From a virus (lineage: Duplodnaviria; Heunggongvirae; Uroviricota; Caudoviricetes), in IMG/VR virus record IMGVR_UViG_2706794699_000009: DNA of 4,111 nt; one strand, 5' to 3'. The notes beneath the pieces were generated by a model that was not told the DNA's origin, made no database searches, and saw only the letters and a program-made list of their open reading frames with translations. Shown here piece by piece: positions 1 through 4,111 of this stretch. A program made the translations under genes and the position numbers. Numbering within the stretch: the stretch's first letter is position 1; each line of letters begins with the position of its first letter.

Positions 1-67
1 CAATCGTCAGCGTCGTCACTCTCGTCTGGGGAATATCTCCCCGGCAGCCTTCAGGGAAAAATATCAT
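1..67 (-). CDS. Possible 5' end of an unidentified ORF running off the left edge (ATG at 65-67), or the out-of-frame continuation of the 79-474 ORF
   Basis: Minus-strand frame is open from the ATG at 65-67 to the window edge (MIFFPEGCRGDIPQTRVTTLTI...). No obvious Shine-Dalgarno. The same frame would be reached from the 79-474 ORF if the A7 run at 81-87 had one more base. Too short to judge. Confidence 0.2.
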   Translation of the reverse strand, partial: MIFFPEGCRGDIPQTRVTTLTI

Positions 68-78
68 CAGATGGCTGC

Positions 79-432
79 TTAAAAAAAGAACAAATGGTAG
101 TGTCCGCTATTGCCAGTACACCTCAATTGCTCTGCGGCTTCGCTCAGAGCTGGCGTATGTTCCCGGCCTACTGATTCACACAGGTAATCAACGAAACCGG
201 ACACCAGTTTTCGTTCGCGAGGCGTGATCGCCCCACCGACCGGAGTCCAGTAATCGAAACCCAGTTGCAGGAGTTTGAAAAAACGCTTGTGGAATGCGTA
301 GTTACACACACGCTTAAAGTCTGCGTGTATCCACTCACCTATTTTGATTTGATGCAGAAAATCGCAACTCTCCGGCGTCGCCGGGAGAAGTAATCCGGAA
401 GAGGTTTGTTTGACCAGTTGTATATGTGCCAT
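79..432 (-). CDS. Hypothetical small phage protein (nin-region-like), family not recognised
   Basis: Minus-strand ORF with stop at 79-81. ATG at 430-432 is preceded by GGAG at about 7 nt spacing (CCGGAGAAAGCCGATG). The ORF track extends it to a TTG at 472-474 that overlaps the upstream stop (TTGA); I prefer the ATG. The ORF ends in a T7 homopolymer on the minus strand. Confidence 0.55.
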   Translation of the reverse strand: MAHIQLVKQTSSGLLLPATPESCDFLHQIKIGEWIHADFKRVCNYAFHKRFFKLLQLGFDYWTPVGGAITPRERKLVSGFVDYLCESVGREHTPALSEAAEQLRCTGNSGHYHLFFF

Positions 433-1032: not shown

Positions 1033-1053
1033 NNNNNNNNNNNNNNNNNNNNN
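1033..1053. other. Run of 21 N (assembly gap or masked sequence) in the queH-like 3' region
   Basis: Literal n characters at 1033-1053. Confidence 0.95.
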
Positions 1054-3329: not shown

Positions 3330-4032
3330 TTACCCCCTGAAGCCTGGCGGGATCGCACTGTCCGGCAACGAGACGGTGTTAACCTGTCGGAGCAACGTCT
3401 CAGGCCGAACACCTTTCGGCGCGAACAGGCCCTGGTATTCATTGGCGATGCTGTGTCGAATCACCTGCTCAGGTGTAAAACCCTGCTGACGGAATTTTTC
3501 CAGTTCCCGTATCGCCCCGTTAGCGCCCTGCTCCGTTCGAATCGGTTTTCGCAATGCCTGTCTGAACCGGACCCACTCATGCCAGAGTGTTTCCGGCAAC
3601 CAATCGGGCAGCTCAATAGCCTCCGGCTCGAATTTTTTAGACGCTCGTTTTTGGCGAGGGGGAGATCAGTATTTAGATCTTCCTCTTCCTCTTCCTCTGG
3701 TAACGCTTTTTGATCCGTTTGTGTAACGCTGGCAGCGTTACCTTTTCGTTTCAGTTCGCGTATTTTTGTTACTCGCTCGTTTGTAACCGCCCGTTTTTTT
3801 TAGAGCTTTTTCCGTTATGACGTTCAAAGTTAGGTAGAGAAAGCCCTCCGTCATTTTCGACCAGCCATCCAACCTGAATTAACGCATCAGCAAAACCAGA
3901 CATAAAAGTGATGCGATCTATTGCACTTTTTGTAACGCCGCGAGCGTTACAATCTGCATTACCGTCTATCATTTGTTGATCCGCCCATGCCCAGAAGCGA
4001 ATAACCTGAGGTAGCCTGAGTTTAACGGACAC
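3330..4032 (-). pseudogene. Phage replication protein with a DnaT-like C-terminal domain, broken by two single-base frame breaks; 5' end lies in or against the IS end
   Basis: Three minus-strand segments in different frames: 4032->3769 (N-terminal 87 aa, GTG start), about 3801->3662 (KKRAVTNERV...PEEEEEEDLNTDLP) and 3665->3330 (SPPRQKRASKKFEPEAIELPDWLPETLWHEW...VNTVSLPDSAIPPGFRG). The last segment matches the E. coli DnaT C-terminus as recalled (YPDWQPD...VNTVSEPDSQIPPGFRG). Frames join if the T8 run at 3794-3801 and the G5 run at 3658-3662 each gain one base. Stop at 3330-3332 lies 6 nt before the dnaC-like ATG. Confidence 0.65.
3679..3698. repeat. Hexanucleotide tandem repeat (TCCTCT)x3 encoding a poly-Glu stretch in the replication protein
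   Basis: Plus strand cttcctcttcctcttcctct; on the minus strand this is GAG GAA x3, giving EEEEEE in the middle frame segment. Confidence 0.8.
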
Positions 4033-4111
4033 TCCTTCCTGAAATAGAATGGCATCAGAAGGAGCTAATAATGAGCAGAAAAACCCAACGTTACTCTAAA
4101 GAGTTCAAAGC
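4007..4111 (+). mobile_element. Left end of an IS3-family insertion sequence (IS600-like), running off the right edge
   Basis: Plus-strand ORF starting at 4071 encodes MSRKTQRYSKEFKA, the typical N-terminus of IS3-family OrfA (HTH transposase subunit). Candidate left terminus TGAGG at 4007-4011, 64 bp upstream of the orfA ATG. The boundary is approximate. Confidence 0.5.
4071..4111 (+). CDS. IS3-family transposase OrfA, N-terminal 13 codons (partial)
   Basis: ATG at 4071-4073 preceded by AAGGAG at 4059-4064 (6-nt spacing). Translation MSRKTQRYSKEFK... continues off the window. Confidence 0.55.
   Translation, partial: MSRKTQRYSKEFK

Follow-up and report, generated by a model that had tools for sequence, protein, structure and literature searches.

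The apparent start of a replication gene in the stretch of viral DNA analysed here (4,111 nucleotides in full, hereafter the window) lies inside the left end of an IS600 insertion sequence, and the arrangement as a whole is very probably explained by an IS600 insertion and a chance hybrid start in a decaying initiator gene. The insertion is an instance of ordinary, already well-understood gene decay, with no new biology. The features on which this explanation draws are collected in Table 1.

According to this model, IS600 transposed into the gene at the O position, upstream of the DnaC-like ydaV, of a Rac-like or lambdoid cryptic prophage, where it split codon 36 after its second base and duplicated the target GGT, leaving the first 35 codons, with their ATG, ribosome-binding site and native promoter, 1264 bp away from the remainder of the gene. 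On its complementary strand, read outward, the IS600 left end happens to offer AGGAAGGA-GTG with eight sense codons following it as far as the terminus, and with the native frame continuing in phase, ORF finders call an 87-aa hybrid; the frame is broken again by a slip of +2 in a homopolymer and by the loss of 10 bp. We directly observed where the IS ends, the complete element, its target duplication, the N-terminus that it displaced, the additional lesions and a second use of the leader, and nothing that we found contradicts the insertion model, of which the proposed lack of expression is the weaker part.

Table 1 Features of the window bearing on the IS600 insertion and the interrupted initiator gene.
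Feature	Position	Strand	Remarks
Right end of another IS600, same orientation as the copy at 4007	1–125	+	Truncates DUF1367 gene (79–474, minus)
Initiator gene remnant, codons 36–262, predicted pseudogene	3330–4006	-	98% identical to the intact L001 gene
10-bp deletion between AGGGGGA direct repeats, second frameshift	3650–3663	-	Junction 3656/3657
87-aa hybrid ORF	3769–4032	-	MSVKLRLPQ (9 residues, IS and junction), native 36–105, 8 out-of-frame residues, stop
Homopolymer T8 (T6 in intact genes), +2 frameshift	3794–3801	-	Hybrid ORF stops at 3769–3771
3-bp target-site duplication, one copy	4004–4006	.	ACC on the plus strand, GGT on the gene strand
IS600 (IS3 family) left end	4007–4111	+	Cut by the window edge; full element 1264 bp in matching contigs
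Left terminal inverted repeat, TGAGGTAGCC...	4007–4035	+	20/29 positions equal to the right end
Promoter-like site, inward, for orfA (TTAACG, 17-nt spacer, TAGAAT)	4022–4050	+	From L003 minus strand, 10011–9983
IS-borne apparent start, GTG (4030–4032) and abutting AGGAAGGA (4033–4040)	4030–4040	-	SD pairing -6.5 kcal/mol
IS600 orfA start, MSRKTQRYSKEFK...	4071–4111	+	IS position 65; RefSeq annotation

An IS600 terminus at position 4007

The final 105 bases of the window (4007–4111), TGAGGTAGCCTGAGTTTAACGGACACTCCTTCCTGAAATAGAATGGCATCAGAAGGAGCTAATAATGAGCAGAAAAACC..., are identical at 105 of 105 positions to annotated IS600 left ends. In a megablast search of complete E. coli genomes, the segment 3990–4111 was matched in 3060 of the 5426 genomes, with at least 99% identity in 3101 records, and the RefSeq features lying under the matches were annotated as 'IS3-like element IS600 family transposase'. 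Perfect agreement over 105 bases with thousands of copies far exceeds anything that chance would be expected to produce.

To locate the terminus, an alignment was made of the window and five IS600 left ends with unrelated flanks, namely those adjacent to agn43 (O26 11368) and to yqfG (O145 RM12581), in a T6SS remnant (SHP24), in a DUF4132 gene (FDAARGOS_943) and at a second IS600 copy in one of the matching contigs (L003). All columns from T4007 to 4111 were invariant across the five, and to the left of T4007 the flanks were unrelated; the IS3-family end that a preliminary description of this DNA had placed at about 4007 is accordingly that of IS600. Approached from the gene, the same boundary appeared: homology with the uninterrupted gene of E. 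coli FDAARGOS_944 reaches ...AATAACCT (4007) and then ends, and an uninterrupted homologue, 97–98% similar and likewise ending at 4007, was found in 680 E. coli genomes. Following ...AATAACCT, the uninterrupted homologues read TCCCTAATGCGG..., whereas the window reads GAGGTAGCC...; its continuation ...CCTGAGGTAGCCTGAG... is not the native sequence in intact relatives, in which similarity stops at 4007. By homology alone the T at 4007 is assignable to either partner, and we set the terminus there on the strength of the 3-bp duplication and of TG...CA ends of the IS3 type. The alignments thus put the IS terminus at 4007, with prophage homology stopping at 4006/4007, as a comparison with an uninterrupted homologous prophage had been expected to reveal.

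The GTG, the SD-like AGGAAGGA and the first eight codons therefore all fall to the right of the terminus, within the IS, as had been suggested. That the GTG at 4030–4032 and its SD are instead native, with the IS ending further right, beyond 4032, is vanishingly improbable, given that 4007–4111 is identical in IS600 copies with unrelated flanks and that intact genes carry TCCCTAATGCGGCATC... after ...AATAACCT. An Rfam scan of the whole window, with E values up to 0.1, returned no match, so that none of its RNA families is represented at the IS end.

The complete element and the displaced N-terminus

As the window stops within the IS, its far side was reached through the exact 87-aa product of the minus-strand ORF 3769–4032, which is listed in 481 blocks of an assembly collection. 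Most of these blocks (397) are on contigs of 2–5 kb, and some copies of the ORF are on chromosome-scale contigs of 4.78–4.82 Mb. Two of the matching contigs, L003 and L004, are 100% identical to the entire window, masked N runs excepted.

In L003, a full IS600 copy occupies 8763–10026. It measures 1264 bp, in agreement with the length of IS600 and within the range of about 1.2–1.5 kb of the IS3 family, and has the ends TGAGGT...ACCTCA. Its left inverted repeat, TGAGGTAGCC..., and the reverse complement of its right one, TGAGGTGTAC..., agree at 20 of 29 positions; only the left repeat is in the window. The copy has orfA at IS position 65 and an A7G slippery site at 316, with Pfam matches to HTH_Tnp_1 and rve on orfA/orfB and an NCBIfam transpos_IS3 match of 334 bits on orfB; RefSeq annotates IS600 loci with the note 'programmed frameshift'.

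The other end of the element, predicted to lie about 1.2–1.3 kb to the right, thus turned up at a distance of 1264 bp in contigs matching the window at 100% identity, and the anticipated target duplication of 3–4 bp proved to be the 3-bp GGT. The L003 flanks read GGGAAGGT/IS/GGTTATTCG, compared with GGGAAGGTTATTCG in the intact gene, so that GGT stands on both sides of the element in L003 and the intact gene has a single copy. A 41-aa ORF beyond the IS consists of MASNWIKLEVITPDKPEIFRLAEILNIDPDAALGKV followed by five IS-encoded residues, its first 36 residues being residues 1–36 of the intact 262-aa protein. Comparison with the uninterrupted prophage gave 35 displaced native codons, MASNWIKLEVITPDKPEIFRLAEILNIDPDAALGK, which bears out the earlier proposal that the native N-terminus had been displaced and that the present start is a chance hybrid. 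In silico removal of the IS and one GGT restored residues 1–105 exactly. As reconstructed from these junctions, the event is a simple transposition into codon 35/36.

The far side differs between loci. In the simple-insertion loci L003 and L005–L007 the native start lies beyond the IS. In L004 (8680–8762), the far end of IS600 adjoins a fragment of another transposase, in L008 (8700–8762) it adjoins the 3' end of the Rac ydaV, and in both the duplicate GGT is absent. These differences in far-side DNA indicate IS600-mediated deletion or recombination, which would have followed the original insertion. The two fates that had been offered for the true start, lying beyond the element or lost, are consequently divided among the loci: it is present beyond the IS in the four simple-insertion loci and absent from L004 and L008.

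The junction was spanned by none of the 5426 complete E. coli genomes, and the 38-base junction had no exact match in genome contigs of species representatives. We also considered whether the junction is an assembly artefact of a short-read contig collapsed on a repeat. The window starts and ends in IS600 copies (1–125 and 4007–4111), as is typical of a repeat-bounded short-read contig, and the predominance of 2–5 kb contigs among the blocks with the ORF would fit such an origin; the junction, full IS, duplication and displaced N-terminus are nevertheless present in the 4.78–4.82 Mb contigs of several independent assemblies (L004–L007), which makes an artefact highly unlikely.

The interrupted replication-initiator gene

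The intact homologue of the interrupted gene (L001, 2531–3319) encodes 262 aa. Its protein matched no Pfam family, and NCBIfam gave no usable family; residues 1–262 aligned with positions 1–277 of the 277 of phrog_2509, 'replication initiation protein', with an E value of 1.2e-89, a family name that is an annotation only. The C-terminal half also matched the PHROG families 'primosomal protein' and 'O-like'. The gene is located between ydaT and the DnaC-like ydaV, downstream of cro/ydaT and directly upstream of ydaV, a DnaC/IstB-like helicase-loader gene. Family annotation and synteny together support its designation as a putative replication gene.

Comparison of L001 2531–3319 with L008 7176–8033 gave 81% identity to Rac YdaU over the C-terminal 124 residues and no relationship to it over the N-terminal ~138. 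The same C-terminal 124 residues weakly resemble the C-terminal domain of DnaT (PDB 2ru8, E value 9.5e-5). The initiator is, from these alignments, a mosaic, and the IS landed in its different, N-terminal module. One RefSeq record labels the intact homologue 'YdaU family'; we rejected a filing under DUF1376 (Pfam PF07120), as Pfam gave no match and only the C-terminal 124 residues align with YdaU.

Besides the IS, the gene carries a +2 frameshift in a homopolymer and a 10-bp deletion (Table 1), both common to all IS-bearing loci examined. As a result, three stretches of the gene lie in three frames, in agreement with the ORFs at 3769–4032 and 3330–3599. Because of the +2 frameshift and the deletion in addition to the IS, the replication initiator is, judged from its reading frames, a triply disrupted, dead pseudogene. 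IS insertion into replication genes had been put forward as a route to prophage immobilisation; the insertion in the replication gene is borne out, and immobilisation is not creditable to it alone, because the prophage is heavily decayed and carries many other lesions. We also observed that the copy number of a GAGGAA hexamer repeat encoding a glutamate run (window 3681–3700) varies, with L005–L007 (at about 10370) holding three extra units, or 18 nt.

The apparent GTG start and the hybrid ORF

On the plus strand, CAC is found at 4030–4032 and TCCTTCCT, equivalent to AGGAAGGA, at 4033–4040, both inside the IS. The minus-strand ORF opens with GTG TCC GTT AAA CTC AGG CTA CCT CA/G GTT (the slash marks the junction), so that codons 1–8 and two bases of codon 9 of the ORF at 3769–4032 are IS-derived. 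Residues 8–80 of its product correspond to positions 34–102 of phrog_2509, and about the first 33 positions of the profile are missing. Contrary to the preliminary description, the minus frame is not open from 4032 to the window edge, being closed by TAG at 4096–4098 and TGA at 4105–4107; this changes nothing, because the stretch from 4032 to the edge is the antisense of IS600 orfA.

The nine-residue leader is found elsewhere as well. As VSVKLRLPQ, it begins the ORF of a 160-aa integrase C-terminal fragment (L003, 15645–16127), at the left end of a second IS600 copy, 5.6 kb from the insertion in the replication gene. By this comparison, the leader belongs to the IS600 end and not to the replication gene, and ORF finders would call it wherever the flanking frame is open, and the 87-aa ORF is, in the same terms, a chance fusion called by such programs.

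Several properties bear on whether the hybrid ORF could nonetheless be a real, expressed new gene, in which IS600 would give a portable start to a truncated initiator that retains some activity, for example interference with the replication of incoming phages. The fusion is in frame with the native frame, the SD-like purine run AGGAAGGA pairs with the 3' end of 16S rRNA at -6.5 kcal/mol, the exact 87-aa product in 481 blocks implies that the junction is stably inherited, and the same leader stands in frame on the integrase fragment. Against these points, chance alone would put one third of insertions in this orientation in frame, and the wide occurrence is explained by clonal inheritance. The paired stretch of the SD-like run lies 0 nt from the GTG, compared with spacings of 6 nt at the native ATG of the initiator gene, 7 nt at ydaV and 5 nt at IS600 orfA. 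A simple consensus scan found no outward promoter-like site in or around the IS; the sole sigma-70-like site there is the inward orfA promoter, which fires across the GTG in the opposite direction. Moreover, the ORF retains only native residues 36–105 before the stop that follows the +2 frameshift, and the domain common to the initiator and Rac YdaU (81%, with the weak DnaT-like match) is out of frame. Taking both sides together, we judge an expressed new gene to be improbable.

The 87-aa ORF has neither the SD spacing of a functional gene, nor an outward promoter-like site in the consensus scan, nor an intact frame through its domains. Because the SD abuts the GTG, an outward promoter-like site is absent and two frameshifts follow, the hybrid ORF most probably does not function as a gene, and we infer that it is not expressed and that initiator function has been lost. 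Read-through from the prophage early promoter may cross the antisense strand of the IS, and some translation can start from a GTG that has a purine-rich run beside it.

A broader proposal is that the IS600 left end carries a conserved outward start (AGGAAGGA-GTG with eight sense codons) that systematically gives rise to truncated fusions. The IS600-borne start heads both the replication initiator and the integrase, two occurrences in a span of 6 kb, and a second frame at the IS600 left end contains ATG. We consider this proposal very improbable; if it were true, some fusion fragments may be expressed and selected, for instance a truncated initiator acting against related phages. Under the preferred explanation, a chance hybrid start in a decaying gene, the consequence is one for annotation: the ORF at 3769–4032 on the minus strand is to be annotated as part of an IS-disrupted pseudogene and not as an 87-aa protein, and the leader MSVKLRLPQ may serve as a marker of an IS600-junction artefact, recurring with the same orientation and frame.

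Comparison with known systems

The element shares with IS600 of Shigella and E. coli the TG...CA ends, imperfect inverted repeats, orfA/orfB with A7G, rve (DDE) and the 3-bp duplication; we found no distinguishing difference, the window itself ending 105 bp into the element. Among the five IS that have expanded in every Shigella species is IS600, which in this genus is a major contributor to pseudogene formation and gene inactivation (Hawkey et al. 2020, PMC7373316). The locus resembles IS-mediated prophage decay in Shigella in having several IS and IS-bounded rearrangements. The absence of the junction from the 5426 complete E. coli genomes, a high IS load and chromosomes of 4.8 Mb point to a putative Shigella host, and the latter two suggest Shigella sonnei. 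With the Rac YdaU/YdaV module and with lambda O/P it shares a gene at the O position, upstream of a DnaC-like ydaV; it differs from Rac YdaU in its unrelated N-terminal ~138 residues and in having no match to DUF1376.

Several insertion sequences, among them IS1, IS2, IS3, IS10 and IS150, can activate neighbouring genes via outward promoters. The present case is similar in that IS-borne signals stand beside a truncated gene, and differs in that those signals comprise only the SD-like run and the GTG, with no outward promoter-like site and a frameshifted downstream gene.

Prophage context of the insertion

The 3.9-kb prophage segment in the window is bracketed by direct IS600 copies, the one at 1–125 cutting the DUF1367 gene at about residue 117 of ~199. 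In L003 the flanks of this copy do not match each other (CAAT..., ...GTT), and the copy connects the DUF1367 gene with an integrase fragment; it therefore marks a rearrangement. Together with the varying far-side DNA, the direct copies show IS600 serving as a rearrangement substrate in the decaying prophage. The surrounding prophage, which adjoins modC, also contains IS2-like, IS110-family and further IS3-family elements.

The N runs of the window (1033–1053 and 2900–2960) are compressed masks. The 21 N at 1033–1053 stand for 277 bases (L003, 13223–13499) covering most of a hok/gef toxin gene, and the 61 N at 2900–2960 for 304 bases in the DnaC-like ydaV (L003, 11073–11376); wherever one of these runs intervenes, ORF lengths and positions in the window therefore deviate from the real ones, and ydaV encodes 248 aa, not 167. 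Among the early-region genes, we observed a prophage-borne gene (1135–1821, minus) for an epoxyqueuosine reductase QueH (Pfam E value 1.9e-65) and, as its neighbours, genes for a DUF977 winged-helix protein (2383–2805) and a small protein (1969–2382) with a weak, sub-threshold match to a zinc ribbon.
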